From an uncultured Deferribacteres bacterium (lineage in GTDB: Bacteria; Zhuqueibacterota; Zhuqueibacteria; Zhuqueibacterales; Geothermadaptataceae), in assembly GCA_964014485.1 (NCBI GenBank), contig CAXHAT010000138.1:1-21709 (forward strand): a stretch of 21,709 bases of DNA, in the 5' to 3' direction. Made by a program: the position numbers and the translations under genes. The notes under the pieces were generated by a model. The model had not been told where the DNA came from and did no database searches. It was given only the letters and a program-made list of their open reading frames with translations. This document shows, one piece after another, positions 3 to 21,709 of this stretch (the first letter of the stretch is position 1; the number at the start of each line of letters is the position of its first letter).

Positions 3-1334
3 GTCATCTTCACCGACGTTCACTGCTGCACGGTCTCGGTCATCGTCTTTTTGACCGTCAATCCCAATCCAACCGTGACGGTCGCCGACGTTTCGACTTG
101 CGCGGGCGGCAGCGCGACAATTTCAGCCGGAGTCACCAGCGGCACGGCGCCCTTCAGCTACGCCTGGACGGTTCCCGGCGGCGCAACCAATCCCGGCGAT
201 ACAGACAGTTTTAGCGCATCAGTGGCCGGAAATTATTCCGTCATCGTCACTGACGTGCACGGCTGCACCGGTTCCGACAACGGCGACTTGACCATCCATC
301 CCAATCCGACGGCTGACGCAGGTGCGGATGCGACGATTCTTTCCGGCGCTTCGACCGTCATCGGCGGAGCCACCACGGCTTCCGGCGGCACGGGTGCCTT
401 GACCATCGCATGGACGCCGACGACCGGCCTGGACGACGCGACCATCGCCAATCCAACCGCGACGCCGACGGCAACCACTGTCTACACCGTCACCGTGACC
501 GACGTCAACGGCTGCGAAGCGACCGACGACGTTACGGTCACGGTACAAACCAACAACGACGTGATCACCGACGCTTGCGCCGCCGTGCAGGCCTTGATCG
601 ACGATCCCAACACGCCAACCGACGCTTTGAGCGCGCTGCAAGATGCGAAGGACGCCTTGAACGACGCCGCAAATACGAGTGATACGGAAGATTTCTTTGA
701 CGCCATGCGCGAAGCGGCCAACGCGCTCGAAGACGCGCGCGACGAAGGCGTGGACACCGATCCGATCGCGGCCATGCTCTCCAATCTCGCCCGCCACATA
801 GCGACGCAAAAACGCGCCGAAGCCTTCGCCTGCGATCCGACCCCGACCGGCAAAATGCAGGACGACATTGACGACGGCGACAGCGACCTGGCCGACGGCG
901 ATCTCGAAGTGGCGACGACCTACCACGGCGACGGGATTAAGGATTACAAGAAGGCGTGGGAAGACTATTGCTCGGCGTTGGATCGCTGCCAGAATCCGAA
1001 AGCCGCGGCCTTCAATGATCAATTAGCAATAAACAATGAGCAGGCTTTGCCGACGGATTTCGCGCTGCATCAGAATTATCCGAATCCGTTTAATCCGAGC
1101 ACGACGATTCAGTTTGATCTGGTCGATGCGGGCCATGTTTCGCTGAGCATTTACAACAGCGCGGGACAACTCGTGCGCACGCTGGTTTCGGGCGATTACG
1201 CCCCCGGCGCGCACAAGGTCGTCTGGGACGCGCGCGACGATTCCGGTCAACGTGTGGCGAGCGGGGTTTATCTCTATACGATTAAAATTGGTCAACAATT
1301 TTCTGCGCAGAAAAAGCTCTTGTTAATGAAGTAA
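3..1334 (+). CDS. Secreted Ig-like (SprB/PKD-type) repeat protein with acidic helical domain and FlgD-Ig/T9SS-type C-terminal domain; 5'-truncated (paralogue P1)
   Basis: The frame is open from the contig edge. It contains Ig-like repeats (FSYAWT...GNYSVIVTDVHGC; PTADAGAD...YTVTVTDVNGCE), the shared helical domain at ~561-1001 and the CTD FALHQNYPNPFNPSTTIQF...WDARDDSGQRVASGVYLY at 1059-1334. The TTG at 51 is not a credible start. Confidence 0.85.
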   Translation, partial: VIFTDVHCCTVSVIVFLTVNPNPTVTVADVSTCAGGSATISAGVTSGTAPFSYAWTVPGGATNPGDTDSFSASVAGNYSVIVTDVHGCTGSDNGDLTIHPNPTADAGADATILSGASTVIGGATTASGGTGALTIAWTPTTGLDDATIANPTATPTATTVYTVTVTDVNGCEATDDVTVTVQTNNDVITDACAAVQALIDDPNTPTDALSALQDAKDALNDAANTSDTEDFFDAMREAANALEDARDEGVDTDPIAAMLSNLARHIATQKRAEAFACDPTPTGKMQDDIDDGDSDLADGDLEVATTYHGDGIKDYKKAWEDYCSALDRCQNPKAAAFNDQLAINNEQALPTDFALHQNYPNPFNPSTTIQFDLVDAGHVSLSIYNSAGQLVRTLVSGDYAPGAHKVVWDARDDSGQRVASGVYLYTIKIGQQFSAQKKLLLMK

Positions 1335-1390
1335 ACCGTTCGGTTGATAAAGCGACAGTTTCGAAAAATCATTTGGAGAAGGAAACGAAC

Positions 1391-3400
1391 ATGAAAATCA
1401 GAAAAACCTCTGGCGCAACAATCGTTTTCACACTGTTGAGCATCCTTATGTCTGCGAGTTTCGCGCAGGCGCAATTCACCGAAATCGCCAAGATCCAGGC
1501 GAGCGATAAAGAAGCTTTTGATCAGTTCGGCGTTTCGGTCTCGATTAGCGGCGACCGTGCCATTGTCGGAGCGGATCTGGAAGACGCGGACGGTTTCAGC
1601 GTCGGGGCGGCCTACATTTTTGAGCGCAGCGGCGGGGTATGGAGCGAAGTCGCCAAAATTCAGGCGAGTGATAAGCAACCCCTTGACCATTTCGGCAGGT
1701 CAGTTTCGATCAGCGGCGACTATGCCATTGTCGGAGCCGATAGGGAAGACACAGGCGCTTTAGACGTCGGGGCGGCCTACATTTTCGAGCGCAACGGCGA
1801 GGTATGGAGCGAGGTCGCGAAAGTCCAAGCGAGCGATAAACAAGCATCTGACTGGTTCGGCTGTTCCGTATCAATCAGCGGCGACCGCGCCATTGTCGGG
1901 GCGCGATTTGAAAGCACGGGCGCTTTGGTCGCCGGCGCCGCTTACATTTTCGAGCGCAACGGCGGGGTGTGGAGCGAAGTCGCCAAAATCCAGGCAAGCG
2001 ATAAAGAAGCTCTTGACCAGTTCGGCATTTCGGTCTCGATCAGCGGCGACCGCGCCATTATCGGAGCAAATCAGGAAGGCACAGGCGGTTCTAAAGACGG
2101 GGCGGCCTACATTTTCGAGCGCAGCGGCGGGGTGTGGAGTGAAGTCGCCAAAATCCAGGCGAGCGATAAAGAAGCCGGTGACCGGTTCGGCATTTCGGTC
2201 TCGATCAGCGGCGACCGCGCCGTTGTGGGGGCGCGTGGGGAAGACACGGGCGGCGACAACGCCGGGGCGGCCTACATTTTCGAGCGCAGCGGCGGGATGT
2301 GGAGCGAAGTCGCCAAGATTCAAGCGAGCGATAAAGAAGCCGTTGACCTTTTCGGCTACTCGGTCGCGATTAGCGGCGACCGCGTCATTGTCGGTGCGTA
2401 TGGGGAAGACACAGGCGGTTTAGATGCCGGGGCGGCCTATATTTTCGAGCTCAATGGCGGAGTTTGGAACGAACTCGCCAAAGTCCTGGCCAGCGACAAA
2501 GAAGCCCATGACTGGTTCGGCTATTCGGTCGCGATCAGCGGCGATCGCATCATTGTTGGGGCGTGGCTTGAAGACACGGGCGGTTCCAAAGCCGGAGCAG
2601 CCTACATTTTTGAAAACGCGCCGATTGCTTCAGCATGCAATAACATTCAGGCTTTGATCGACGATCCGGGAACCGATCCGGACGCGCTTGACGCCCTGCA
2701 GGAAGCCAAAGACGCTTTGGAAGACGCCCAGGAAGCGCTGGATAACGGCGAGATCGAAGACATGCTCAACGCCCTGCGCGACGCCGCCGACGCCCTGGAA
2801 GAAGCCCGCGAAGACAATGTTGATACAGATGCCATCGCCAGCCTTCTGGCCGATTTCGCCCGCAGCGTAGCTACAGACAAAAAAGACGAAGCTTTAGCCT
2901 GCGATCCCGCTCCAACCGGTAAAATGGCCGACGATATGGAAGACGGCGACAACGATCTCGCCGACGGCGACGAAGAATACGCCGACAGCTACTTTGGCGA
3001 CGCGATCAAGGACTATCGCAAGGCGTGGGAAGATTATTGCAGTGCGCTGGAACGGTGTGTTTCTCCGAAGGCAGTTTTCAGTGACCAGCATTCAGTGTCC
3101 AGTGATCAGTTATTGCCGCAAGCGTTTGCACTGTATCAGAATTATCCGAATCCGTTTAATCCATCGACGACGATTCAGTTTGATTTGATCGAAGCCAACC
3201 ATGTTTCGTTAAGCATTTACAACAGCGCGGGACAACTCGTGCGCACGCTGGTTTCCGGCGATTACGCTCCCGGCGCGCACAAGGTCGTCTGGGATGCGCG
3301 TGATGATTCCGGTCAGCGGGTTTCCAGCGGATTGTACGTGTACACAATTCGGATTGGACAGCAATTCACCGCGCAGAAGAAGTTGTTGTTGATGAAGTGA
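1391..3400 (+). CDS. Secreted 7-bladed FG-GAP repeat beta-propeller protein with acidic helical domain and CTD (P2)
   Basis: GGAGAAGGA lies upstream of ATG 1391. The signal peptide ends in AQA-Q. Seven 55-aa repeats (AKIQASDK..D.FG.SVSISGDRAIVGA..ED.GG...GAAYIFE) are followed by the shared C-terminal cassette. Confidence 0.9.
   Translation: MKIRKTSGATIVFTLLSILMSASFAQAQFTEIAKIQASDKEAFDQFGVSVSISGDRAIVGADLEDADGFSVGAAYIFERSGGVWSEVAKIQASDKQPLDHFGRSVSISGDYAIVGADREDTGALDVGAAYIFERNGEVWSEVAKVQASDKQASDWFGCSVSISGDRAIVGARFESTGALVAGAAYIFERNGGVWSEVAKIQASDKEALDQFGISVSISGDRAIIGANQEGTGGSKDGAAYIFERSGGVWSEVAKIQASDKEAGDRFGISVSISGDRAVVGARGEDTGGDNAGAAYIFERSGGMWSEVAKIQASDKEAVDLFGYSVAISGDRVIVGAYGEDTGGLDAGAAYIFELNGGVWNELAKVLASDKEAHDWFGYSVAISGDRIIVGAWLEDTGGSKAGAAYIFENAPIASACNNIQALIDDPGTDPDALDALQEAKDALEDAQEALDNGEIEDMLNALRDAADALEEAREDNVDTDAIASLLADFARSVATDKKDEALACDPAPTGKMADDMEDGDNDLADGDEEYADSYFGDAIKDYRKAWEDYCSALERCVSPKAVFSDQHSVSSDQLLPQAFALYQNYPNPFNPSTTIQFDLIEANHVSLSIYNSAGQLVRTLVSGDYAPGAHKVVWDARDDSGQRVSSGLYVYTIRIGQQFTAQKKLLLMK
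1475..2614 (+). repeat. Seven tandem 165-bp coding repeats (FG-GAP blades)
   Basis: Near-identical units such as gcggcctacattttcgagcgcagcggcggggtgtggagcgaagtcgccaaaatccaggcgagcgataaa recur every 165 bp. Confidence 0.9.
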
Positions 3401-3407
3401 TTTGACG

Positions 3408-3465
3408 AAAACCGGCAATCGTGAATCGAAAGTGGTCTGATTTGCGATTGCCGGTTTCATTTTTT
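3408..3465 (+). terminator. Rho-independent terminator after P2
   Basis: Stem AAACCGGCAATCGTGAATC / GATTTGCGATTGCCGGTTT (two G-U pairs) followed by CATTTTTT. Confidence 0.75.
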
Positions 3466-3713
3466 CGGGCCGCAATGTAAAATCTCTCGCCAGCCTATCT
3501 GCAAACCTTTGACGTTTTCGTAACTCTACGCAGAGGCGTTGTAAACGGACTTCCGGCGCCGTCCGCTTTCCATTGCATTTCCTGCGGATTCATTTCAGAA
3601 TGGACTCTACAATCATTCGCCAAATCCGACCAAGTTTTGGCGTTTAGAACAAAGCTCTTTCGAGTAAGCGGTTTTAATTCCGCACTATCCTTACAAACAG
3701 GAGGAAGTTTACA

Positions 3714-6700
3714 ATGCATGGAACATGGGCGCCAGGACAGTCAGAAAATCAGCGTCGATTCCGCAACGTTCTACAAGCAGGAGCGGCTTCTGCCGCAGCG
3801 ATGTTCGCTTTCCTGATGACAACCGTAGGAGGCGCGACCCCAACACCCGCACCACCGGCGACACACTGTTTTGTCGTGACAAACACAAATGACGCAGGAG
3901 CAGGCTCGCTGCGGCAGGCGATTCTCGATGCGAATGCGACTGCAAACATCGACGCCGCCACGCCGGATACCATAAAATTCAACATTCCAGGGGCTGGCCC
4001 GCATACGATTTCCCCGACCTCGCAGTTACCTGCGGTGACAGACCCGGTCATCATCGATGGTCTCACCCAGCCGGGCGCTTCCTGTTCCAGCTGGCCGCCA
4101 ACCCTGGAGATTGAACTCGACGGCAGCAATCTGGGCGGATCCAGCGCCTTCGGTCTGACTTTCAGAACGGATGGCAACACCATTCGTGGACTTGTTATCA
4201 ACCGATTTTCGTTGGCGGGCATCTGGTTTGATGGCAGTAACAACAACAAAGTAGCATGCAACTTCCTAGGCGCCGATGTGACTGGCCTGCTGGCGCGCCC
4301 AAACAACTTCGCCATTTCGATGGACGGCTCAAACACGCAAATCGGCGGGCTCACCACCGCTGAGCGTAACCTGATTTCAGGAAATTCTGGCCAGGGCATC
4401 TCTCTTGGCGGCGATAACAACATTATTCAAGGCAATTACATCGGTGTTGATGTGACTGGCGCCGCCGACCTTGGCAACGGCAGGTCCGGCATCCAGGTGT
4501 CTGGAGAGAACAACACCATTGGCGGGACTGCCTCCGGCGCCATGAATGTGATTTCGGGCAATCGACAATACGGTGTCACGGTTGACAGCAGGGGGGTAAC
4601 CCTTCCAACGAAGAAAAATACCATTCAAGGCAATATCGTTGGGCTGAACGCAGCCGGAACCGCCGCTGTTCCCAACGATTCGATCGGCGTTTTCATTGTC
4701 GAATCCGACAGCAATCTCGTGGGGGGCATTGTAGAAGGTGCGCGAAACATCATCTCCGGCAATGGCAGCAGAACCAATGCGAACGAAGATGGGAACGTTG
4801 GCGTCTATGTTCGGATGTCGAAACACAATACGATTCAAGGCAACTTTGTCGGGACAGATCTTTCCGGCACGGTCGATCTCGGCAATCTCGATCACGGTAT
4901 TTACGTTTTTGCCGATTCGGACAGCAATCTCATTGGCGGAACTGTACCGCGGGCGGGTAACCTGGTCTCTGGCAACGGTAGAATGGGCGTCCGCATTGGC
5001 GGCGGGTCAGAATACAATGTCGTCCAGGGAAATCTCGTGGGCACGGACGTGACCGGCACCGCGCCGTTAGGCAACGACGATTCAGGTATTCGCTTTAGTG
5101 GAGGTTCAAGTCATGGTATCGTAGGCGGCGTCGAACCCAATGCGCGAAACATTATCTCCAACAATGGTCGATTCGGCTTGCGGTTCAGCGGCGGATCTCA
5201 CTCAGCGGTCATCAAAAACAACTATATCGGCGTCGATATCACCGGAACGGCGGCCATGGGCAACGATACTTCGGGCGTCCGGTTCAGCGGTGGCTCCGAT
5301 TCATGCCAGGTCGGTGGATCTGCACCGAACGAAGGCAATGTCATCTCAGCAAACGGAGATGAAGGTCTGCTGTTCAGCGGCGGCGCCGCGGAGGGTGCAA
5401 TTGTTCAGGGCAACAAAATCGGCACTGATCGCTTCGGCAGCACGAACCTGGGGAATGGGTCGTATGGCATTAGAATGGAAACAACCGACCCGCCCGGACG
5501 CATTGCCCTTATTGGCGGCGTCAATCCTGGCGAAGGAAACATCATTGCCTTCAACGACAGCGCGGGCGTTCTCCTGACTGATGAACTCCGCATCCCGGTT
5601 GCTATTCTTGGCAACTCGATCTTCAACAATGGCGGACTGGGTATTGATCTCGGCGCCGATGCAGGCGACTTCGAAGACGGCGTCACCGGCAACGACCCTT
5701 CCGACGACGATACCGGTCCCAACGGCCTGCAAAACTTCCCCGTCATCACCGAGGTGAATACAGACGGCAGTGGCTCCGTGACCATTTCGGGGATCTTCAA
5801 CAGCACAGCGAATACCAGCGGTTTCCGCCTGGAATTTTTCGCGAATGCGGTGTGCAATGGCGATCAAAGTGGTGCGGCCCAGGCGGACGACTATGGCGAA
5901 GGTGAAACCTTTATCGGCGCCGATGTGGTGACGACCAACTCTTCAGGAGACGCCAGTTTTTCGTTTGCCTTTAGTGCGGTCGTGGCTGGCGGTGCATTCA
6001 TCACCGCAACCGCAACGTCGCCGGACAGCAGTACTTCGGAATTCAGCCAGTGCGTCATTGCTGTTCAAGGTTGTGGTGCTGAAACGGTCATCAATGATGC
6101 AACCGCCGCCGTACAAGCGCTCATCGATGATTCAGGTACCGATTCGGACGCGCTGGATGCCCTGGACGAAGCCAAAGACGCACTTGCCGACGCCCTCGGC
6201 TATGCCCTGGTAGATGACGTCGAAGAACTCTGCGACGCCCTGCGCGACGCCGCCGACGCCCTGGAAGAAGCCCGCGAAGACGCCGACGGCACCGATCCGA
6301 TCGCCAGTTCCCTTGCTGATTTAGCGCGCTGCATCGCCGAAGAAAAACGCGAAGAGGCGCTTGAATGCGATCCTTTGCCCTCCGGCAAAATGGCCGACGA
6401 CATCGAAGACGGTGACAACGACCGCGCAGACGGTGATGAAGAGTACAATGATGGCTACTTCGGCGACGCCATCAAGGATTATTGCAAGGCGTGGGAAGAT
6501 TATTGTGATGCGCTGGACCGTTGCGAGAACCCAAAAGCCGCAGCGCTCGACAATGATGAATCGATCATTGAAAACGCTTTGCCGACCGAGTTTGCACTGC
6601 ATCAGAATTATCCGAATCCGTTTAATCCATCGACGACGATTCAGTTTGATCTCGTCGACGCTGGTCATGTGTCGTTGAGCATCTACAACAGCGCGGGACA

Positions 6701-6866
6701 GCTTGTTCGCACGTTGGTTTCCGGCGATTACGCCCCCGGCGCGCACAAGGTCGTCTGGGATGCGCGTGATGATTCCGGTCAGCGCGTGGCCAGCGGATTG
6801 TACATGTACACGATCAGAATCGGTCAGCAATTCACCGCGCAGAAGAAGTTGTTGTTGATGAAGTGA
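3714..6866 (+). CDS. Secreted right-handed parallel beta-helix repeat protein with acidic helical domain and CTD (P3)
   Basis: RBS CAGGAGGA, then a hydrophobic N-terminal segment and a cap motif VTNTNDAGAGSLRQAILDAN. Many GN.IG.D.TG / N.ISGN beta-helix repeats follow, then an FRLEFFAN...ITATAT...STSEFS domain and the shared C-terminal cassette. Confidence 0.88.
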   Translation: MHGTWAPGQSENQRRFRNVLQAGAASAAAMFAFLMTTVGGATPTPAPPATHCFVVTNTNDAGAGSLRQAILDANATANIDAATPDTIKFNIPGAGPHTISPTSQLPAVTDPVIIDGLTQPGASCSSWPPTLEIELDGSNLGGSSAFGLTFRTDGNTIRGLVINRFSLAGIWFDGSNNNKVACNFLGADVTGLLARPNNFAISMDGSNTQIGGLTTAERNLISGNSGQGISLGGDNNIIQGNYIGVDVTGAADLGNGRSGIQVSGENNTIGGTASGAMNVISGNRQYGVTVDSRGVTLPTKKNTIQGNIVGLNAAGTAAVPNDSIGVFIVESDSNLVGGIVEGARNIISGNGSRTNANEDGNVGVYVRMSKHNTIQGNFVGTDLSGTVDLGNLDHGIYVFADSDSNLIGGTVPRAGNLVSGNGRMGVRIGGGSEYNVVQGNLVGTDVTGTAPLGNDDSGIRFSGGSSHGIVGGVEPNARNIISNNGRFGLRFSGGSHSAVIKNNYIGVDITGTAAMGNDTSGVRFSGGSDSCQVGGSAPNEGNVISANGDEGLLFSGGAAEGAIVQGNKIGTDRFGSTNLGNGSYGIRMETTDPPGRIALIGGVNPGEGNIIAFNDSAGVLLTDELRIPVAILGNSIFNNGGLGIDLGADAGDFEDGVTGNDPSDDDTGPNGLQNFPVITEVNTDGSGSVTISGIFNSTANTSGFRLEFFANAVCNGDQSGAAQADDYGEGETFIGADVVTTNSSGDASFSFAFSAVVAGGAFITATATSPDSSTSEFSQCVIAVQGCGAETVINDATAAVQALIDDSGTDSDALDALDEAKDALADALGYALVDDVEELCDALRDAADALEEAREDADGTDPIASSLADLARCIAEEKREEALECDPLPSGKMADDIEDGDNDRADGDEEYNDGYFGDAIKDYCKAWEDYCDALDRCENPKAAALDNDESIIENALPTEFALHQNYPNPFNPSTTIQFDLVDAGHVSLSIYNSAGQLVRTLVSGDYAPGAHKVVWDARDDSGQRVASGLYMYTIRIGQQFTAQKKLLLMK

Positions 6867-6895
6867 TTTGCGGTTTCAGCTTCATCTTATAACTG

Positions 6896-6941
6896 AAAAA
6901 GCATCGTTCGGGAAATCCGGGCGATGCTTTTTTGTTTTTTT
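6896..6941 (+). terminator. Rho-independent (possibly bidirectional) terminator after P3
   Basis: AAAAAGCATCGTTCGGG-AAA-TCCGGGCGATGCTTTTTTGTTTTTTT. Confidence 0.85.
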
Positions 6942-7032
6942 GCTCTTCGCATATGAAAGCAAGAAGGCTTGACTATCGCCGTACTTCGATTAACTTCTAG
7001 AAAAAGCGGTAACATGAAAATGTGCGAATCGC

Positions 7033-10000
7033 ATGAAAACATTCTACAGCCCAGGAACGGCCTACAAGCGAAGTTTCTATTCGCCGGAGAAATCAGTTCT
7101 TCTGAAAAACTTGAGATTCCAGCGTTCTCGCCGTGCAGTAAGCTTTATCGGCGCATTTTTGGCTCTGGCACTCTCTCCAGCCTTGGGGCAAAGTCAAGAT
7201 TTTTCATCGATTAAAGAAACCGGCGTTCCTTTCATGCAAAACTTCGGGTTTGAAGAGTACGGCGCGCATCCGCAGAATTGGGGGCTTGTGCAAGACGAGC
7301 GCGGCAGGATGTATTTTGGCAATACCGAAGGAATTATCATCTATGACGGCGTTCGCTGGCATTCTATTAAGCTGCCAAATCAGTCATTCGTTTTCGCGCT
7401 GGCGCAGGATCAAACCGGACGCATTTATGCGGGCGGCCAAAATGAATTCGGCTACTTGAGTCCTGATTCCGTCGGTCAATTGCGCTACGTTTCCCTAACG
7501 CCGCAACTTCCTGAGGAACATCGTGCGTTTGGCTTCATTTCGCAAATTCAAATTTCCGGAGAATACGTCTATTTTCAATCCTTGTCTCGGCTCTTCCGCT
7601 GGCAGCCCCGTCTGGCCGCTTCCGAAGATTCATTGACCGGCGATTTCAAAATTTGGCGCTCGAAAACCAGATTTCTCAGTCTGTACAACGTCGGCGGGGA
7701 AATCTTTACGCGCGAGCACCTGAACGGACTGGTCAGAGTCGACGGCGATTCCATCCATTCAGTACCCGGGGGAGAAATTTTCGCTACCGAGAGCCTTGCC
7801 AATATATTTACTTTTTCCCGCACGCCTGACGAACGTGCAATTCTGATTGTTTCTTCCGTTCAAGGATTGTTCGTGATCGAATCGGACGCGATTACGCCGT
7901 TTCCGACGCAGGCGGACGATCTTTTGCGGCAGGGCGATATTTTTTACGCTTGCGAGCTTGAAGACGGCACGCTGGCAATGGGAACGGCGCACTACGGCCT
8001 TCTTCGTTTGAATACACAGGGAAATCTGCTGCAAATTTTGGATAAATCCTCCGGCCTGATCGATCAAAACGTCCATGATATGCGCGCTGACGCCCAAGGC
8101 GGGTTTTGGGCGACTTTTGACAAAGGTTTGGCGCGACTGGAAATTCCCGGACCTTTTTCAATCTTTACGGCGAAACAGGGTCTGGAAGGTTCCGTTTACA
8201 ATATCGTTCGTCATCAGGGTAAAATCTATATTGCCACAAGCGTCGGCGTTTTTCATCTGGTCGAGAGTGAGAACGCCCGCCCCGTTTTTCGGCTTTTACA
8301 AAATTTCAACAACGAATCCTGGTGGCTCCTTTCTGCTGGGGAAGTTTTGCTGGTTGCGACCTCCGAAGGCGTTCATGCCTTCAAGGACGGTCGGATAACT
8401 CAGCTCAACAAAGACATTTCTTTTACTTTATTTCGCTCAACTTTCAATCCGTCGCAAATCTTCATCGGGCTGAATGACGGTCTTGCTTTGCTGGAGTTTT
8501 CAAGCAACCAGTGGCGATATTCCGGGCGAATTTTAACGGCTAAAAGCGACGTTCGCAGCATCACGCAGTCTGATAACGGCGACGTTTGGCTTGGAACCGG
8601 CTATGAAGGCGTGATCCGCATTCCCGATTGGCCGAGAGCCGTATTCGGTAAAACCGATAGTTCAGCAATCGATTTCGATGAATATGGAGAAGCGAACGGT
8701 CTCCCGCCCGGCGGAGCCTTTGTCGTAAGCGTCAATAACGATGTGCGTTTTGCGACTCGCCAGGGGCTGCGTTTCTATGCCGAAAACCCGAACATGTTTT
8801 TTCCGGATTCCAGTCTGGGCGTGGCCTTTGCGGATTCCAGTTTCCAAATAGGTCGTGTCGTACAAGAATCCGGCGGCAGCGTTTGGCTGCAAAAAGTTTC
8901 GGCCAATAGTTTGGAAACCGGCGTTTTGCAGATGCAGCAAACCGGAAGCTACGTGTGGAACGCCAGGCCGTTTATGCGCATCGCCGATTTGGCGAGAGAG
9001 CTTTCGCAAATCTATCCGGAAGAAAACGGCGTCACCTGGTTTGCGACGATTGACGCCGTCGTACGCTACGATTCTCGTATCGCGAAGAATTATTCGCGCG
9101 AACATCACGCTTTGGTGGGCCGCGTGCTCTTGAACGGAGATTCTCTTATTTTCGGCGGATATGGAACCGCTGATTTTGCCGCTCCTGAGTTGCATTATGC
9201 GAACCATACTTTTCGCTTCGAGTACGCAGCAACAAGCTTTGACCATCCCGCCGCTAACCAGTTTCAAACGTTTCTGGAAGGTTTTGACGAAACCTGGTCG
9301 TCCTGGACGCATGAAACGCAAAAAGATTACACCAATTTGCCGCACGGCGATTTCCAATTTCGCGTACGTGCGAAGAATGTTTATGGAAATCTGAGCCGCG
9401 AGGACAGTTTTTCGTTTTCCATCGCGCCGCCATGGTATCAGACATGGTGGGCGTATGCGATTTACGCCCTGCTTTTTCTCACTGCCGTTTTTGTCGTCGG
9501 AAAAATTTACGGGGACTATCGCGCGAAAGAACAGGCGAAAGAGCTGGCTCGGGAGCGCGAAATCAACGACCGTCTGCGCAAGGTCGACAAGCTCAAGGAC
9601 GAATTTCTCGCCAATACGTCGCACGAACTGCGCACGCCCCTAAATGGCGTTATTGGCTTGACGGAATCGCTGCTGGACGGAGCAGGCGGAGATCTGCCGC
9701 CCAAAGCCGCCGCCGATCTTGGGCTTGTGGTCGCCAGCGGCAAGCGGCTATCCAGCATGGTGAACGACCTGCTCGATTTTTCCAAACTCAAGACGCATGA
9801 ATTGACGTTGGTTAAAAAGCCGGTCGATCTTCACGTCATTGCTGAACTGGTGCTGAAATTCAGCGAAACGTTGATCGGCGGAAAAGCGCTGGCTTTGCAA
9901 AACCGCGTGCCGAAAAAGCTGCCTCCGGTTGACGCGGATGAGAGCCGGTTGCAGCAGATTCTTTACAATCTCATTGGCAACGCTGTGAAATTTACCCGGG

Positions 10001-11655: not shown

Positions 11656-11661
11656 ACCAAC

Positions 11662-13731
11662 ATGCAAGTACGGATCGCAGCGTTTCTCAAATCTCTTCGT
11701 CCTTTATTAGAAGTGCTTCATAGTGAATGTCGTCAGTTTTCCGCTGGTGAAACCGTCGTGCGCGAAAACGAGCGTGATGATGCGCTTTTTTTTCTCGAAA
11801 AGGGCCAAGTACGTATCATTTGGGGAGCTGATAAATTTGAATTAGCCGTCGTGCAGGCTCCTGAAGTGCTCGGAGAATTGGCTTATCTGCAAAACGCTTC
11901 TCACTCAGCGACGGCCGTTGCGATAGATGAATGCTCGGTCATCATTTTACCGCGGAATGCTGTTCAAAAGCTCAAAGATATTCGCCCCGATTTGCATGAA
12001 CATTTGTACGAATATCTCCTGGAAATTCTTGCGTCACGTTTCCGTTACAACGCGGATATGCGCCATCAACTGGCCGTACAAAAAAAGGAAATTAGCGAGC
12101 TGAGCGACAAGCTTAAAGAAATGGATCGGCTTAAGTCGCGTTTTTTCACCAACATTTCCCACGAACTGCGCACGCCATTGACTTTAATTCTGGGCCAGAT
12201 CGAAACGGTGATGGAAAATTCCGGCGGCGAAAATAATCGTCAGAAATTGCAAATGGCTTTTCGCAACGCTAAACAATTGCTGCGCTTGATCAACCAATTG
12301 TTAGACCTCGCCAAATTTGACGCGCAACGGATGACGCTGAACGCCTCGCCCGGAAACATTGTGCCGTTGCTGAGGAATCTCACTTACTCATTCGAGTCCC
12401 TGGCGCACAAAAAACGAATCATGCTGTTTTTCGAGTCCGAACAAGATGAAGTTATTATCAATTTTGAGCAGGACAAGATTGAGAAAATCATGTACAATCT
12501 GCTCTCGAACGCCTTTAAATTCACGCCGGAAGGAGGGAGAATCAGTGTTCAGTTGTCAGTAATCAGTGATCAATCGCCGAGCAAGTCACTAAATACAAAT
12601 GACGACTTACTCATAACTGTCCGCGACAGCGGCGTCGGCATTCCCAGAGATAGATTGCCGCACGTCTTCGACCGATTTTACCAGGCCGATCATTCGCAAA
12701 CGCGAGAGTTTGAAGGAACCGGCGTCGGCTTGGCTTTAACGAAAGAACTCGTGGAGCTGCACGGCGGCGCGATTTCGGCGGAAAGCGAAGAAGGTTTTGG
12801 CGCAGCGTTTTCCGTTCGTCTGCCGGTGGTCAGTTTTCAGTCTTCAGTTTCCAGTGATCAAGCCGACGCAAATATTTTTTATAAGACTGACGCTCAAGAT
12901 TTCCAAAATTCCAACAATCCAACACGCCCAAAATCGATCAAACCAACAAAAAAGGGCGACTTTGTGCTCATTGTCGAAGACAACGACGACGTGCGGGCTT
13001 ACATCCGGCAAACATTGGAAAATGACTATCGCATCATAGAAGCTGCGGATGGCGAAGAAGGCTTTAAACGGGCGCAGGAATACATCCCCGATCTTATTAT
13101 CACCGACGTGATGATGCCGAAAGTTGACGGTTACGCGCTGAGCCGCATGCTGCGCGAAGACGAAGTGACGAGCCACATTCCGATCATCATGCTCACCGCA
13201 AAGGCGGGGGAAGATGAACGCATTGAAGGCTTCGAAACCGGCGTGGACGCTTACTTGATCAAGCCGTTCAGCGCGAAAGAACTGCGCGTTCGTATACGCA
13301 AGCTGATTGAACTGCGGCGTGCGATACAGCAAAATCTTCGAGAATCCGGACTCGATTCGCAAGAATCCAAAACGGAGCAAACAACGCTAAAAATCAGCGC
13401 GCTCGATCAGGCTTTTCTTGATCGCTTGCAAAAGCTTGTGTTGGAAAACTTGAATGATGAAAAATTTACGGCGCCCGTTCTGTCTCGAAAAATCGGCATG
13501 AGCGAGCGGCAATTACATCGCAAACTCAAATCATTGCTTGATTGCTCCCCGGGGCGGTTCATTCGCGACCAACGCATTTACGCCGCGAAAAATCTATTGC
13601 AAGACGGCGGCCTTACGATAACCGAAGCCGCTTTTCAGGTCGGCTACAACAGCCTTTCCTCCTTCACCCGCGCCTTCCGCGAAACCTTCGGCCAAACGCC
13701 GACGGATTTTCTAAAGCAACGGCTTGGTTAA
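11662..13731 (+). CDS. Soluble hybrid regulator: cNMP-binding domain + HisKA + HATPase + REC + AraC-type HTH
   Basis: cNMP fold (FSAGETVVRENE..LFFLEKGQVRI..LGELAYL..HSATAVA); H-box FFTNISHELRTPL; NLLSNAFKFT, DSGVGI, GTGVGL; REC IVEDN..ITDVMMP..IKPF; AraC IGMSERQLHRKLK...ITEAAFQVGYNSLSSFTRAFRETFGQTP. No TM segment seen. Confidence 0.92.
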   Translation: MQVRIAAFLKSLRPLLEVLHSECRQFSAGETVVRENERDDALFFLEKGQVRIIWGADKFELAVVQAPEVLGELAYLQNASHSATAVAIDECSVIILPRNAVQKLKDIRPDLHEHLYEYLLEILASRFRYNADMRHQLAVQKKEISELSDKLKEMDRLKSRFFTNISHELRTPLTLILGQIETVMENSGGENNRQKLQMAFRNAKQLLRLINQLLDLAKFDAQRMTLNASPGNIVPLLRNLTYSFESLAHKKRIMLFFESEQDEVIINFEQDKIEKIMYNLLSNAFKFTPEGGRISVQLSVISDQSPSKSLNTNDDLLITVRDSGVGIPRDRLPHVFDRFYQADHSQTREFEGTGVGLALTKELVELHGGAISAESEEGFGAAFSVRLPVVSFQSSVSSDQADANIFYKTDAQDFQNSNNPTRPKSIKPTKKGDFVLIVEDNDDVRAYIRQTLENDYRIIEAADGEEGFKRAQEYIPDLIITDVMMPKVDGYALSRMLREDEVTSHIPIIMLTAKAGEDERIEGFETGVDAYLIKPFSAKELRVRIRKLIELRRAIQQNLRESGLDSQESKTEQTTLKISALDQAFLDRLQKLVLENLNDEKFTAPVLSRKIGMSERQLHRKLKSLLDCSPGRFIRDQRIYAAKNLLQDGGLTITEAAFQVGYNSLSSFTRAFRETFGQTPTDFLKQRLG

Positions 13732-13759
13732 TGCCTGAGAAATCGTTTCAAAAAGAAAA

Positions 13760-14107
13760 TCAATCTAAGTCAAGATAGTTCTTAACGGCTTGTTCAAGCT
13801 CTTTCAATTTCCCAGGCGTACATGCTCCGACATAGCCTACACATTTGGACTTCTCAATCGTTGTGATCTGGTGAGCCAAAGCTGCGCACTTTTTATTCAG
13901 GCCAGACTCGCCTTTTGAAAAAAGGACGGTCGACGGACTTTTCCCAAGCCATCCTTCGCTCGTTGTCAGCGGGACAATCGTTAAAGACTTCCAGTTTGGC
14001 GCGTTGCTGAAACTGTTATGAGAAACGATGATTCCGGGACGCATGCCTTGCTGCTCAGAACCGCTGCGAGGCTGCAAACGAATAAGGAAAATATCCCCTT
14101 TTACCAC
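13760..14107 (-). CDS. mazF: PemK/MazF-family endoribonuclease toxin (type II TA)
   Basis: Motifs KGDIFLI..GSEQQGMRPGIIVS..IVPLTT..QITTIEK; GTG start preceded by GGAGG; overlaps the antitoxin stop by 7 nt. Confidence 0.88.
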   Translation of the reverse strand: MVKGDIFLIRLQPRSGSEQQGMRPGIIVSHNSFSNAPNWKSLTIVPLTTSEGWLGKSPSTVLFSKGESGLNKKCAALAHQITTIEKSKCVGYVGACTPGKLKELEQAVKNYLDLD

Positions 14108-14358
14108 TCCGTTTCCTCCAGCAATTGACGCGTGACGACAGGATCGAATTCCTGCACAAACTCTTCGCTGTGTTTCGCATTTTTCTCAACGTATTTGTCG
14201 AAAGCCTCCGCCAGTTTTCGCTTTTTGTTCTCTTCCACAAATCTTGACAAAACGCTTTCAATCACTTTGTTCAAGCTGACCTTTTGGTGCGCGGCAATCG
14301 CTTTCAAGTCATTGTAAAGCTCGTTGCTCACGCGAGCATGTACCTGTTGTATCGCCAT
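14101..14358 (-). CDS. Putative ribbon-helix-helix antitoxin
   Basis: 85 aa; N-terminal RHH pattern (VHARVSNELYNDLKAIA...VSLNKVI); acidic C-terminus; directly upstream of and overlapping the toxin. Confidence 0.75.
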   Translation of the reverse strand: MAIQQVHARVSNELYNDLKAIAAHQKVSLNKVIESVLSRFVEENKKRKLAEAFDKYVEKNAKHSEEFVQEFDPVVTRQLLEETEW

Positions 14359-14508
14359 GATTTAGTTGTTCTCCCTGCATAGATACTTTTTTTGGTGAAG
14401 TCATTGGTATCAAAAAATGGAGCAAAAAACAAGAAATTAATGCAACCGCTTTCTACTAGCTATTCTGACAACCAATCACTGAATACTTTTTACTAACTAC
14501 TGCTTCAC

Positions 14509-14584
14509 GGCGAATTCTGAACAACGTTGGCGAAAACTGCATAACGTTGGCGAAATCCGCACACTTTTTGGCGAATTCTGAACA
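14509..14584 (+). promoter_or_regulatory. Four direct repeats with 20-21 bp period; candidate AraC/HTCS operator
   Basis: GGCGAATTCTGAACA (14509), GGCGAAAACTGCATA (14529), GGCGAAATCCGCACA (14549), GGCGAATTCTGAACA (14570), upstream of P4. Confidence 0.65.
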
Positions 14585-14677
14585 GCCCGCCATCATCAAT
14601 TCCTTTATTTTTGCATAGCAATAAAACGGAAGCCCGGATTGCAATCTGGGCCTTTCGGAACAAAACCCCTGGATGCA

Positions 14678-14727
14678 CGACGGCGGGCGGCAAAGCAAGA
14701 TGCTGCGTCGCCTGTCGTCGATTTTTT
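14678..14727 (+). terminator. Terminator-like hairpin in the leader of P4 (possible attenuator)
   Basis: CGACGGCGGGCGGCAAAGCA-AGA-TGCTGCGTCGCCTGTCGTCG followed by ATTTTTT, about 50 nt before the start codon. Confidence 0.5.
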
Positions 14728-14779
14728 AATTCGGAAGAAGCTTTTTGCTGATGTAGAAACTAAAATGAAGGACAACAAA

Positions 14780-16615
14780 ATGAACACTGTAAAACGATCC
14801 CTCAAAAATTTTGTCATCGTTCTACTTTTCTCTCTTCTCGCAACCTCGGCGTTTGCGCAAGACGTGTTTGTGAATTGGAATTCGACAACTTCGGGCGATC
14901 TGGATGGGACAACCGTCACCTTGAGCGGTATGGATAGCCATGACTTTTTTTCAGCAGACCTGACTGGCCCCGATTATTCCGCCGCTCCCGGTTCAGTTTC
15001 GCAACAGACTGTGTCCTATAGTGTTAACAGTGCCGTCGTCACCGCGACCTTTAGCCAGCCGGTGTCCGGTATCCGGTTGTATCTGGTCTTTTGGAGACCC
15101 GACATCACGTTTACTTTCAGTGAGCCGTTCACAGTTTCTTCAGGTTTAACAACTTCAACCGTTTCCAGAGATCAAATCACCACGCCGCCTTCGGCGTTTG
15201 GAGACGGTATCATCGAATTCACTGGCCCCGTTTCTTCCCTGACCATTACTTCCAACGCACCTCCGATGAATTTTAGCAGACAAGGGATTACTTTTAGCAA
15301 AGCTGGACCCGCCAACAGCGATCCGACTGCCAACGCCGGCGGAGATCAACAAGTCTGCGCGTCCGGCGCCTCGACGAACGTCACGTTGGACGGTTCCGGC
15401 TCCAGCGACCCTGACGGCGACGCCCTGACTTACACTTGGACAGAAGGCGCAGCCACGATTGCGACCAGCGTGAATCCAAGCGTTTCTCTGAGCGTGGGGA
15501 CGCACACAATCGAATTGACTGTTGACGACGGCAACGGCGGAACCGATACGGATGAAGTCGTCATCGAGATATTTGCCAACCCGACCGCAGACGCCGGTGC
15601 AGATCAGGAAGTTTTTCAGGGTTTTAGCACGCAAATCGGCGGCGGCCCGACAGGTTCGGGCGGAACCGGCGCGCTGACTTTTTCCTGGACGCCGACCGAC
15701 GGACTCGACAATCCCGCGATTGCCAATCCAACCGCGACCCCTGCGGCAACCACGACTTACACCGTGACCGTAACCGACGCCAACGGCTGCGAAAGCACGG
15801 ATCAAATGACTGTGACCGTACTCTCCAACGCCGACGTGATCACAATGGCGCTTGCCGACGTTCAGGCGCTTATCAATAATCCCAGCACACCTTCAAGCGC
15901 TTTGGGCGCGCTGCAGGACGCCGTTGACGCGCTTAACGACGCACTGGCCGCCAGCGCCGCCGGAGACACGAAAGACATGCTCGACGCCATGCGCGACGCC
16001 GCCGACGCTTTGGAAAAAGCGCGTCACAAAGGCGCCAACACCGATCCGATTGCGACGCAGCTTTCCAGTTTGGCCAGACACACCGCCGTGCAAAAGCGCG
16101 ATGAAGCTTTCGCCTGCGATCCGACGCCGAGCGGCAAAATGCTCGACGACATTGAAGACGGCGACAAAGACTTGGCCGACGGCGACGCTGAAGTGAACGG
16201 AACCTATCACGGCGACGGGATCAAGGACTATCGCAAGGCGTGGGAAGATTATTGTGACGCGTTGAATCGCTGCCAGAACCCTAAGGCGGTAAGCAGTGAA
16301 CAGTATACAGTGACTAGTCCACAGGTTACAGTTCACAGTTTCGCGCTGCATCAGAATTACCCGAATCCGTTCAACCCGAGCACGACAATTCAGTTTGATC
16401 TGGTGGATGCGGGTTATGTGTCGCTGAACATTTACAACAGCGCGGGACAGCTCGTGCGCACTCTGGTTTCCGGCGACTACGCTCCCGGCGCGCACAAGAT
16501 CGTTTGGGACGCGCGTGATGATTCCGGCGCCCGCGTGGCCAGCGGACTCTATCTCTACACGATCAAAGCCGGGCAGCAATTCGCTGCGCAGAAAAAGCTG
16601 CTGTTGATGAAGTAA
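14780..16615 (+). CDS. Secreted protein: unassigned N-terminal beta domain + PKD + Ig-like + acidic helical domain + CTD (P4)
   Basis: AAGGA lies before ATG 14780 (alternative ATG at 14765). The signal peptide ends in AFA-Q. PKD motif PTANAGGDQ..VTLDGSGSSDPDGDALTYTW..LTVDDGNG; an Ig repeat closely matching P1; shared cassette. Confidence 0.88.
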   Translation: MNTVKRSLKNFVIVLLFSLLATSAFAQDVFVNWNSTTSGDLDGTTVTLSGMDSHDFFSADLTGPDYSAAPGSVSQQTVSYSVNSAVVTATFSQPVSGIRLYLVFWRPDITFTFSEPFTVSSGLTTSTVSRDQITTPPSAFGDGIIEFTGPVSSLTITSNAPPMNFSRQGITFSKAGPANSDPTANAGGDQQVCASGASTNVTLDGSGSSDPDGDALTYTWTEGAATIATSVNPSVSLSVGTHTIELTVDDGNGGTDTDEVVIEIFANPTADAGADQEVFQGFSTQIGGGPTGSGGTGALTFSWTPTDGLDNPAIANPTATPAATTTYTVTVTDANGCESTDQMTVTVLSNADVITMALADVQALINNPSTPSSALGALQDAVDALNDALAASAAGDTKDMLDAMRDAADALEKARHKGANTDPIATQLSSLARHTAVQKRDEAFACDPTPSGKMLDDIEDGDKDLADGDAEVNGTYHGDGIKDYRKAWEDYCDALNRCQNPKAVSSEQYTVTSPQVTVHSFALHQNYPNPFNPSTTIQFDLVDAGYVSLNIYNSAGQLVRTLVSGDYAPGAHKIVWDARDDSGARVASGLYLYTIKAGQQFAAQKKLLLMK

Positions 16616-16627
16616 CCTCAGGCCATA

Positions 16628-16654
16628 TGCAACGCACTTCCGAAGTGCGTCGCA
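16628..16654. repeat. REP-like palindrome, copy 1
   Basis: TGCAACGCACTT-CCG-AAGTGCGTCGCA in the P4-P5 spacer; related to 18754-18781. Confidence 0.55.
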
Positions 16655-16713
16655 CGTTCCACGCCCTCGTAAATAAGTTTCTATTTTTCATATTCAAAAC
16701 AGCGGAGAATCCC

Positions 16714-18729
16714 ATGAAGAATCTTAAAACGACGATTGGAAACTTGACCGTATTCTTACTCAATTTCTGCCTGCTGACGGTCGTCGCTCAAGCGCAATTC
16801 AGCGAGGTCGCCAAAATCCAGGCGAGCGACAAACAAGCCTTTGACGAGTTCGGCCGGTCGGTCTCGATCAGCGGCGACCGCGCCATTGTTGGGGCGTTTG
16901 CGGAAAGCACGGGCGGTTTCTTCGCCGGGGCGGCCTATATTTTCGAGCGCACCGGCGGGGGCTGGAGCCAGGTCGCCAAAATCCAGGCGAGCGATCAACA
17001 AGCCTATGACTTTTTCGGCGGTTCGGTCTCGATCAGCGGCGACCGGGCTATTGTCGGGGCGACTGAGGAAGACACGGGCGGTCCCTCCGTCGGAGCGGCC
17101 TACATTTTCGAGCGCAGCGGCGGGGTGTGGAGCCAGGTCGCCAAAATCCAGGCGAGCGATAAACAAGCCGTTGATCGGTTCGGTAATTCGGTCTCGATCA
17201 GCGGCGACCGCGCCATTGTCGGGGTGCGGTCTGAAGATACGGGCGGCGCCAGCGCCGGAGCGGCCTACATTTTCGAGCGCAACGGCGGGGTGTGGAGCGA
17301 AGTCGCCAAAATCCAGGCGAGCGGTAAACAATCCTGCGCCAAGTTCGGCGAGTCAGTCTCGAGCAGGGGCGACCGCGCCATTGTCGGGGCGGATGGCGAA
17401 GACACGGGCGGTTCCGGCGCCGGAGCGGCCTACATTTTTGAGCGCAGCGGCGGGGTCTGGAGCGAAGTCTCCAAAATCCAGGCGAGCGATAAACAATCCG
17501 GCGACAATTTCGGCCAGTCGGTCTCGATCAACGGCGACCGCGCCATTGCCGGGGCGGATGGGGAAGACACGGGCGGTTCCAGCGCCGGGGCGGCTTACAT
17601 TTTCGAGCGCAGCGGCGGGGTTTGGAGTGAAGTCGCCAAAATTCAGGCCAGCGATAAACAAGCTGTTGACCTGTTCGGCACTTCGGTCGCGATCGACGTC
17701 GACCGAGCCATTGTCGGGGCGACTCGGGAAGACACGGGCGGTTCCGACGCCGGAGCGGCTTACATTTTCGAGCGCAGCGGCGGAGTTTGGAGCGAAGTCG
17801 CCAAAGTCCAGGCGAGCGATAAACAAGCCAGTGACCAATTTGGCAATTCGGTCTCGATTAGCGGCGACCACGCCATTGTCGGGGCGCGTTTGGAAGACAC
17901 GGGCGGTTCCGATGCCGGCGCCGCTTACACTTTTGAAGCGCTAGACAATCCAATCGTCATCGCTTGCGCCGAAATTCAGGCGCTTCTCGACGATCCGATG
18001 ACTGAGCCGGACGCTCTGAGCGCCTTGCAAGACGCGAAAGACGCTTTGAATGACGCGCAAACAGCAATGGATAACGATAAAATTGAAGACATGCTCAATT
18101 TCCTTCGCGACGCCGCCGACGCTTTGGAAGAAGCGCGCGAAGACAATGTTTTTACCGACGATATCGCCGCGATTTTAGCCGACTTTGCGCGCGACACGGC
18201 AACGGCCAAAAAGGACGAGGCCTTGGCGTGCGATCCTAGTCCGACCGGCAAGATGGCCGACGATATTGACGACGGCGACAATGATCTTGCCGACGGCGAT
18301 GCGGAAGTCGGCGATACCTATTTCGGAGACGGAATCAAGGACTATCGCAAAGCTTGGGAAGACTATTGCAGCGCATTGGATCGCTGCCAGAATCCGAAGA
18401 CTGTAAGCAGTGATCAGTCTTCAGTTTACAGTTCACAGTTTACGCCGATAGCCTTTGCTTTGCATCAAAACTATCCGAACCCCTTTAATCCGACTACGAC
18501 AATTCAGTTTGATCTGATCGAGGCGGGGAATGTTTCGCTGAACATCTACAACAGCGCCGGGCAGCTTGTTCGCACGCTGGTTTCCGGCGATTTCGTCCCC
18601 GGCGCGCACAAAGTGGTCTGGGATGCACGTGATAATTCCGGTCAACGCGTGGCGAGCGGGCTTTATCTATACATGATCAAAGTCGGGCAACAGTTTACTG
18701 CGCAGAAGAAGCTCTTGCTCATGAAGTAA
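16714..18729 (+). CDS. Secreted 7-bladed FG-GAP repeat beta-propeller protein with acidic helical domain and CTD (P5, paralogue of P2)
   Basis: GGAGA lies before ATG 16714. The signal peptide ends in AQA-Q. Seven 55-aa FG-GAP repeats are followed by the shared cassette. Confidence 0.9.
   Translation: MKNLKTTIGNLTVFLLNFCLLTVVAQAQFSEVAKIQASDKQAFDEFGRSVSISGDRAIVGAFAESTGGFFAGAAYIFERTGGGWSQVAKIQASDQQAYDFFGGSVSISGDRAIVGATEEDTGGPSVGAAYIFERSGGVWSQVAKIQASDKQAVDRFGNSVSISGDRAIVGVRSEDTGGASAGAAYIFERNGGVWSEVAKIQASGKQSCAKFGESVSSRGDRAIVGADGEDTGGSGAGAAYIFERSGGVWSEVSKIQASDKQSGDNFGQSVSINGDRAIAGADGEDTGGSSAGAAYIFERSGGVWSEVAKIQASDKQAVDLFGTSVAIDVDRAIVGATREDTGGSDAGAAYIFERSGGVWSEVAKVQASDKQASDQFGNSVSISGDHAIVGARLEDTGGSDAGAAYTFEALDNPIVIACAEIQALLDDPMTEPDALSALQDAKDALNDAQTAMDNDKIEDMLNFLRDAADALEEAREDNVFTDDIAAILADFARDTATAKKDEALACDPSPTGKMADDIDDGDNDLADGDAEVGDTYFGDGIKDYRKAWEDYCSALDRCQNPKTVSSDQSSVYSSQFTPIAFALHQNYPNPFNPTTTIQFDLIEAGNVSLNIYNSAGQLVRTLVSGDFVPGAHKVVWDARDNSGQRVASGLYLYMIKVGQQFTAQKKLLLMK
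16798..17937 (+). repeat. Seven tandem 165-bp coding repeats (FG-GAP blades)
   Basis: Same repeat unit as 1475-2614. Confidence 0.9.
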
Positions 18730-21664: not shown

Positions 21665-21709
21665 CTGTCTCTTATACACATCTGACGCTGCCGACGAGCT
21701 TCTTGGTGT
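21665..21709 (+). other. Illumina Nextera adapter read-through (artefact)
   Basis: Tn5 mosaic end CTGTCTCTTATACACATCT + GACGCTGCCGACGA + 8-nt index GCTTCTTG + GTGT. Confidence 0.97.

Follow-up and report, generated by a model that had tools for sequence, protein, structure and literature searches.

An acidic six-helix module precedes the sorting domain of five predicted type IX secretion cargo proteins with interchangeable heads

The window analysed here, a 21,709-nt stretch of contig CAXHAT010000138.1 from an uncultured Deferribacteres bacterium, holds eight long open reading frames (ORFs) on the plus strand, five of which (P1 to P5) end in the same tail: an acidic helical module of 147–151 aa, then a variable linker of 18–19 aa, then a C-terminal domain of 91 aa. 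Aligned over their last ~265 residues, the five proteins have a mean column identity of 80%. Within the module, 72 of 151 columns are invariant (78% mean column identity), the linker between the two domains is barely conserved, and the last 91 aa are almost invariant. The module is rich in acidic residues and alanine (Asp plus Glu 19–32%, Ala 17–18%) and has an isoelectric point (pI) of 4.05–4.34. An initial annotation of the DNA had proposed a module of ~145 aa in all five proteins, and its boundaries agree closely with ours: the envelopes of a profile hidden Markov model (HMM) built on a 40-sequence module alignment (A4, which also underlies the structure model) start 0–9 nt and end 6 nt from the positions it gave. 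The three Cys that it called invariant are so (C91, C137 and C143 in the numbering of the P1 module), and its three sequence motifs occur as quoted, apart from the Pro of 'QAL...P.T', which is Ser in P3. The terminal domain indeed measures 91 aa in every copy (273 nt, or 276 nt with the stop codon). However, it does not follow the module directly as had been described, given the poorly conserved linker that intervenes.

The C-terminal domain had not been named in that annotation as a type IX secretion system (T9SS) signal, yet it exceeds the cut-offs of two models in all five proteins, TIGR04183 at 29.5–31.3 bits (cut-off 23) and FlgD_ig at 45.2–49.0 bits (cut-off 27). A third model, PF18962 (26.2–27.3 bits, cut-off 27), is reached by P2 and P3 and narrowly missed by P1, P4 and P5. 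In an AlphaFold2 model of the tail (module, linker and terminal domain) the terminal domain forms a seven-strand sandwich, with block means of 69–87 for the predicted local distance difference test (pLDDT), and a Foldseek search with this model returned FlgD (3osv, E = 2.6e-4), the C-terminal domain of PorU (6za2_A, E = 3.4e-4) and PorZ (5m11, E = 1.5e-3). Matches of the same model to STAT3 were discarded as not meaningful (template-modelling (TM) scores of 0.17–0.20). Read by eye, P2, P4 and P5 have Sec signal peptides in which a basic n-region is followed by a hydrophobic core and an AQA or FAQ site, while P3 has a hydrophobic stretch at its N-terminus and the N-terminus of P1 lies outside the window. 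Judged by its sequence and modelled fold, the terminal domain is a T9SS type A sorting domain, and P1 to P5 are therefore T9SS type A cargo proteins (Table 1). Their secretion, which we infer, agrees with the secreted or surface location that had been proposed for them, and a T9SS sorting signal at this position also explains why the C-terminal domain is of equal length in all five. A study of T9SS substrates describes their cleavage and modification by a sortase-like mechanism (PMC4560394).

Table 1. Positions of the cargo genes, the parts of their tails and the neighbouring plus-strand genes in the 21,709-nt window.
Feature	Positions	Strand	Remarks
P1 T9SS cargo gene	3..1334	+	5' end cut by window; visible head of PKD/SprB-like repeats
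P1 helical module, 147 aa	561..1001	+	From module alignment and profile-HMM envelope
P1 variable linker, 19 aa	1002..1058	+	
P1 T9SS type A sorting domain, 91 aa + stop	1059..1334	+	TIGR04183 31.3 bits (cut-off 23); FlgD_ig 46.9 bits (cut-off 27)
P2, signal peptide + 7x FG-GAP_2 propeller + tail	1373..3400	+	Public call P0010 (669 aa) implies start 1391
P2 helical module, 147 aa	2630..3070	+	Sequence used for structure model
P2 linker, 18 aa	3071..3124	+	Within pLDDT <50 region reaching first residues of 91-aa domain
P2 T9SS sorting domain, 91 aa + stop	3125..3400	+	
P3, right-handed beta-helix head + tail	3714..6866	+	Beta_helix E = 1.7e-9
P3 helical module, 150 aa	6087..6536	+	6 Cys
P3 linker, 18 aa	6537..6590	+	
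P3 T9SS sorting domain	6591..6866	+	
Hybrid sensor, 1540 aa	7033..11655	+	
Hybrid regulator, 689 aa	11662..13731	+	
P4, signal peptide + unassigned N-domain + PKD domains + tail	14639..16615	+	Public call P0001 (611 aa) implies start 14780
P4 helical module, 151 aa	15833..16285	+	3 Cys
P4 linker, 18 aa	16286..16339	+	
P4 T9SS sorting domain	16340..16615	+	
P5, signal peptide + 7x FG-GAP_2 propeller + tail	16627..18729	+	Public call P0004/P0005 (671 aa) implies start 16714
P5 helical module, 150 aa	17950..18399	+	
P5 linker, 18 aa	18400..18453	+	
P5 T9SS sorting domain	18454..18729	+	
Third propeller/Y_Y_Y sensor	18844..window end	+	Truncated at contig end

Different heads precede this tail, although not the five unrelated ones that had been described. 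The heads of P2 and P5, both seven-bladed propellers of seven FG-GAP_2 repeats, are 73% identical, P1 and P4 have in common a PKD-like stretch directly before the module (50% identity over 178 aligned positions), and P3 has a right-handed beta-helix, so that the window contains three head classes only (FG-GAP propeller, PKD-like and beta-helix). A full-length relative of P1, the near-identical P0003, has 1057 aa. The P3 head (3714–6086) consists of ~790 aa of 'N.ISGN...G(I/V)'-type repeats and matches Beta_helix weakly, with no single stretch passing; it is a divergent parallel beta-helix with no assigned activity. Among relatives in the same module clade as the window, the cassette stands behind FG-GAP_2, PKD (PKD-only), beta-helix, Kelch, LamG_3, HYDIN-type Ig, Ig_3/DUF2207, SIBA-E_N and ThuA heads; elsewhere in the family there are also SBBP and lactonase propellers, DUF11, M10 peptidase, NosD arrays, a solute-binding protein and invasin-type Ig. 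The constant tail with interchangeable heads that the initial annotation had put forward is thus real.

We compared substitution rates along the five tails. The ratio of nonsynonymous to synonymous substitution rates (dN/dS) was 0.10–0.27 in the module, 0.34–0.83 in the linker and 0.04–0.11 in the sorting domain, with synonymous divergence (dS) of 0.4–2.1 over all segments where it could be estimated (three pairs were saturated). The combination of high dS and low dN/dS indicates that the tails are uniform through purifying selection, and recent gene conversion was rejected as the source of the uniform sorting domain (dS 0.40–1.96 in that segment); the five tails are old paralogues kept by purifying selection. 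Between P2 and P5, dS was 0.53 for the heads, 1.57 for the modules and 1.96 for the sorting domains, and for its sorting domain P2 has its nearest counterpart in P3 (dS 0.40). There are hints here of a mosaic history with past exchange between heads and tails, which are suggestive only, given small site counts and some saturated estimates.

The module family, although real, is rare: when 1.84 billion cluster representatives were searched with a profile of the five copies, 48 proteins were recovered at E ≤ 1e-3, of which 22 lie at E ≤ 1e-10 and 12 at E ≤ 1e-30. Among 55 proteins, counting those of the window itself and near-identical copies, a sorting domain is found in 36, and in every one of these it starts 14–22 aa after the module. 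The other 19 lack a sorting domain, and all but one of them end no more than 5 aa from the module's last helix. Their ends cluster at profile positions 121–148 of 150 (17 of 19 at 134–148), which points to natural ends and not to truncation of contigs. With either a sorting domain at this short distance (36 proteins) or the end of the protein (18 proteins) directly behind it, the module would be the last domain of the mature protein in 54 of the 55. Two modules stand in tandem in 15 of the 55 proteins.

More distant copies were sought in the genome contigs of species representatives, where a scan with the window-only profile gave 227 pattern matches with none confirmed and a narrower alignment (A5) gave 10 loci. 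Relatives at 32–38% identity were found in two Calditrichia metagenome-assembled genomes (MAGs). All 11 module-bearing ORFs at the Calditrichia loci (L001–L008) have two modules followed by a sorting domain; nine are from one MAG, and they are often adjacent. The same loci contain six ORFs with a sorting domain and no module, which shows that export and processing do not, as a rule, require the module. These observations bear on a rival explanation in which the module is an extended secretion signal that the T9SS reads together with the sorting domain, or an intramolecular chaperone that keeps large heads export-competent. The near-constant distance between module and sorting domain would suit such a role, and a study of the gingipain RgpB proposes that motifs in both linker-adjacent domains dictate processing (PMC4804311). 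However, a signal of this kind is hard to reconcile with the six module-free ORFs and with the 19 relatives that have the module and no sorting domain, one of them from Acidimicrobiales, and we think it very unlikely.

In one Calditrichia MAG, the genes for doubled-module cargo cluster within ~35 kb (L005–L007, JANQQU010000012.1, 166–200 kb), with a second cluster of ~25 kb (L002/L008, JANQQU010000085.1, 77–103 kb), and the clustered genes are partly back to back, like the tandem arrangement in the window. The Acidimicrobiales relative, an actinobacterial ORF (L010, positions 3416–4360 of MAG contig JBKAGO010000061.1), has one module and is without a T9SS sorting domain. It has the same loop Cys, a Cys just after the last helix and a run of ~25 Asp/Glu directly after the module, and against Pfam it matched no family at E ≤ 1e-5. 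A further locus, in Moranbacteria (L009), was dismissed as spurious, with only 41 profile positions matching around 'AVKDYRDAWEK'.

An AlphaFold2 model of the P2 module, computed with alignment A4, reached a pLDDT of 97.5 and a predicted TM score (pTM) of 0.91. It consists of six helices (residues 2–11, 17–38, 42–60, 67–91, 97–118 and 122–144), all of which are reproduced in the tail model, with the last helix ending at 141 there. The N-terminal and C-terminal halves of the module align with each other in hhalign (probability 95.9%, E = 6.3e-9, 62 columns), and the module is an internal duplication of a ~70-aa three-helix unit. Each unit runs from a short helix through a 'DP.T' loop into a long helical hairpin, and an extra helix joins the two units. 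According to the model, the module is an autonomous, rigid and very acidic all-helical domain.

The initial annotation could not place the module in a named family, and in our scans, too, whether of whole proteins or isolated modules, every Pfam and NCBIfam model stayed below its cut-off on the module; a confident match to a characterised family, for example a FIMAH-like one, was looked for and did not emerge. Similarity to NCBIfam Amuc_1098 (13 of 40 members of A4, best E = 4.4e-4, cut-off 750 bits) was set aside as apparent compositional noise. A search of PDB sequences with the window-only profile gave nothing significant (best E = 0.0093, a designed helical protein). Foldseek searches with the module model gave no match at E ≤ 1e-3 among 487 in the PDB (best E = 0.2) or among 397 in BFVD (best E = 0.35), and the best TM score in the PDB was 0.47, for the N-terminal domain of Borrelia BB0323. 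Matches in an Atlas search were to unnamed clusters (best 0.91, a 134-aa hypothetical protein labelled Chloroflexota) and to DUF4398 clusters (0.75–0.77), and serve as leads only.

Weak similarities to described models recur in the family. The commonest is to DUF4398 (PF14346), matched by 25 of 40 members at E ≤ 1 (best 5.8e-5). It is colinear with the N-terminal half of the module in all five window copies (profile positions 3–60 on residues 2–60 of the P1 module, E = 0.017–2.5), at 9.1–16.0 bits and thus below the gathering cut-off of 27.9. FIMAH (PF22888, gathering cut-off 24.8 bits) is matched by 9 of 40 members (best E = 2.1e-5) and is unlisted for all five window modules even at E ≤ 10; of two distant relatives, P0034 exceeds the cut-off at 39.1 bits, with its best FIMAH stretch inside one of its modules, and P0033 reaches 24.1 bits. 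Both models cover ~80 positions, the size of one half of the module. Unlike them, the module consists of two such units in a fixed pairing, linked by a helix; the window's clade adds Cys and an acidic helix. In the literature, we found no paper on the FIMAH domain and only passing mentions of DUF4398 with no described role, so a match to either would supply no role. A further similarity is to TPR units: profile positions 106–135 of the family (the end of helix H5, the turn and H6; 'G.YD.AIK.Y..AWE.A') match PDB sequences of consensus TPR units and STI1, and sub-threshold Pfam TPR matches occur in up to 14 of 40 members. However, the module has a single hairpin and no tandem 34-residue array, the window-only profile matches TPR chains at E = 2.3–9.7, and no TPR superhelix was found by Foldseek. 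The module is a previously unnamed domain, and a candidate new domain family in a known kind of system.

The acidic stretch DDxxDGDxDLADGDxE within the module is reminiscent of DxDxDG-type calcium sites, and calcium binding had been one of the roles suggested for the module at the outset. If the stretch and the Cys together coordinated calcium or another metal, bound ions could stiffen a stalk or bridge it to an anionic surface glycolipid, a role that the Asp and Glu content and pI of ~4 would suit and towards which a sub-threshold similarity to Pfam SMBP (Small metal-binding protein; 10 of 40 members, best E = 1.8e-5) also points. However, the stretch forms helix H5 in the model (pLDDT of 97–99 per 10-residue block) and aligns column for column with ordinary K/E/A-rich helices of the wider family, its Gly residues taking the positions of Ala in those helices, which argues against a calcium-binding loop. 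Moreover, TSP_3 and EF-hand models gave no match on the window modules at E ≤ 10, and the acidity is limited to the window's clade and P0022, whereas fold and position are family-wide. The Cys are similarly confined, to this clade, P0022 and the Acidimicrobiales ORF. A metal-binding module therefore strikes us as highly improbable.

The Cys themselves vary in a partly paired manner. Besides the three invariant positions, P1, P2 and P5 have a fourth Cys, located in helix 1. All 20 Cys-bearing instances have the loop Cys (CDP) as well as the last Cys (RC). Of these 20, 12 also have both the helix-1 Cys and the 'YC' Cys, and two have neither (P0008 and P0022); the two positions are mismatched in four (YC only in P0001, P0009 and P0011, helix-1 Cys only in P0019), and helix 1 lies outside the covered region in another two (P0017 and P0018). 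On these sequence patterns, two disulfides would be expected, C91–C143 and C3–C137, and in the window's clade one or two disulfides, formed in the periplasm, probably staple the module.

Taken by analogy with better-known cargo, these features incline us, somewhat more than otherwise, towards a rigid spacer or base that would sit between the surface anchor and the varied heads of T9SS cargo. As in characterised T9SS cargo, the sorting domain would take the folded protein through the outer-membrane translocon, and a PorU-type sortase would cut in the flexible linker of 18–19 aa. We infer a cut within this linker because it is predicted to be disordered (residues 146–176 of the tail model have pLDDT <50, with a pTM of 0.57) and evolves freely. 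The protein would then be released, or its new C-terminus joined to a surface glycolipid, and the mature protein would now end in the module, adjacent to the anchor. As a standard base, the module may hold the head at a distance from both membrane and sorting domain, and may give the processing machinery a uniform junction for any head, while its copy number (one here, two in Calditrichia) could set the length of the stalk. Support comes from copy number, which varies like that of a spacer, as the tandem doubling shows. The stalk role that the initial annotation had envisaged is likewise consistent with the fixed site just before the sorting domain and with the doubling in Calditrichia.

Comparable arrangements have been described in other T9SS cargo. 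In RgpB, a disordered 9-residue linker connects an Ig-like domain with the sorting domain; glycolipid attachment depends critically on the length of this junction, and the authors suggest that the Ig-like domain is a spacer or insulator (PMC4804311). In our reading the module would take the place of this domain. Cleavage sites in Prevotella cargo are located in a flexible linker between a preceding folded domain and the folded sorting domain (PMC11969387). The Ig-like domains of the gingipains (RgpB, Kgp) and of PPAD are likewise the final folded part ahead of a disordered linker and a T9SS sorting domain, and like the module, the gingipain domain is constant while the functional part differs, with a junction whose length matters for processing (PMC4804311). 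However, the gingipain domain is a seven-stranded beta-barrel, whereas the module has six helices and no detectable sequence or structural relation to it, and the junction is 18–19 aa long here as opposed to 9 in RgpB. In Gram-positive bacteria, stalk repeats (three-helix FIVAR/GA-type, Rib/Ig) are small autonomous domains between a wall anchor and a head. They resemble the module in this position and in a copy number that varies among paralogues, but belong to another secretion and anchoring pathway, with no homology detected.

Several points weigh against a spacer. That the gingipain Ig-like domain acts as a spacer is itself no more than a proposal, the 21.7-kb window contains no T9SS machinery gene, and the six Calditrichia cargo ORFs described above do without the module. 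In addition, ~48% invariant columns across old paralogues suggests more constraint than a pure spacer needs, and neither the conserved acidic face nor the Trp/Tyr motif (KAWEDY) would seem to be required by one. Conservation beyond the needs of a spacer suggests a specific partner or ligand, and thereby the main rival, in which the module is a docking or oligomerisation domain whose common receptor or self-binding assembles the heads into a surface coat or complex, much as cohesin and dockerin do. The strong conservation under purifying selection and the acidic face with its aromatic motif agree with this, as does the position of the module as a free C-terminal domain in relatives without a sorting domain, where a non-covalent attachment domain would be expected; several paralogues are also direct neighbours, both in the window and at the Calditrichia loci. 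However, no conserved partner gene lies beside the cargo genes (their neighbours in the window are sensor kinases and a toxin-antitoxin pair), no similarity to a known docking family was found, and the strong negative net charge at pI ~4 disfavours self-association without counter-ions. A homodimer prediction for two copies of the module with A4 (score 0.00, mark 0.42, 'no answer') weighs neither way. We regard docking as unlikely, albeit less so than the other two rivals.

A bolder extension, which we consider improbable, would make the module a new class of C-terminal envelope attachment domain in bacteria with and without a T9SS. Every mature protein would end in it. It would dock non-covalently to surface glycans or to other copies of itself, with divalent cations bridging it to anionic lipopolysaccharide in the acidic, Cys-stapled clade, and the tandem paralogues would build a mixed coat of interchangeable heads on a common foot.

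The module also offers a handle on the role of the pre-signal domain in T9SS processing, be it spacer, recognition element or anchor foot. Outside Bacteroidota, cargo of the T9SS has hardly been studied, and no paper turned up in a literature search combining Calditrich* with 'type IX secretion'. The module is a clean candidate for a new domain family, being conserved, confidently folded by prediction and unannotated, with a slot of its own beside the sorting signal. A model of it would improve the annotation of many 'hypothetical' surface proteins in Calditrichia-like genomes, and module, linker and sorting domain together could be used as a portable tail for surface display.

Two hybrid regulators lie between the cargo genes (7033–13731). 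The first combines a Reg_prop/Y_Y_Y sensor with HisKA, HATPase and receiver domains and an adenylate/guanylate cyclase; the second, starting 6 bases downstream of the first, has a cNMP-binding domain, HisKA, HATPase and receiver domains and an AraC helix-turn-helix. The two adjacent regulators could constitute a cyclic-nucleotide relay and, from their location, might control the cargo genes. They resemble regulators of a Bacteroidota-related group, which we note as a lead only. In the gap of lower GC content (0.45–0.50) between the regulators and P4, the minus strand carries a type II toxin-antitoxin pair (13760–14358), made up of a PemK/MazF-like toxin ORF (13760–14107, E = 2.1e-18) and, just upstream and overlapping it by 7 nt, an 85-aa ORF (14101–14358) with a weak, sub-threshold similarity to HicB (E = 0.0011, 19.2 bits, cut-off 21). 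Rfam and tRNA scans of the window gave no match. At the 3' end of the window, positions 21666–21698 contain ctgtctcttatacacatctgacgctgccgacga, which is read through as '...VSYTHLTLPTS' in the last ORF. Since we take this to be the Illumina Nextera transposase adapter, the last ~45 bases of the window are a library artefact at the contig end, and the third sensor gene is truncated there.

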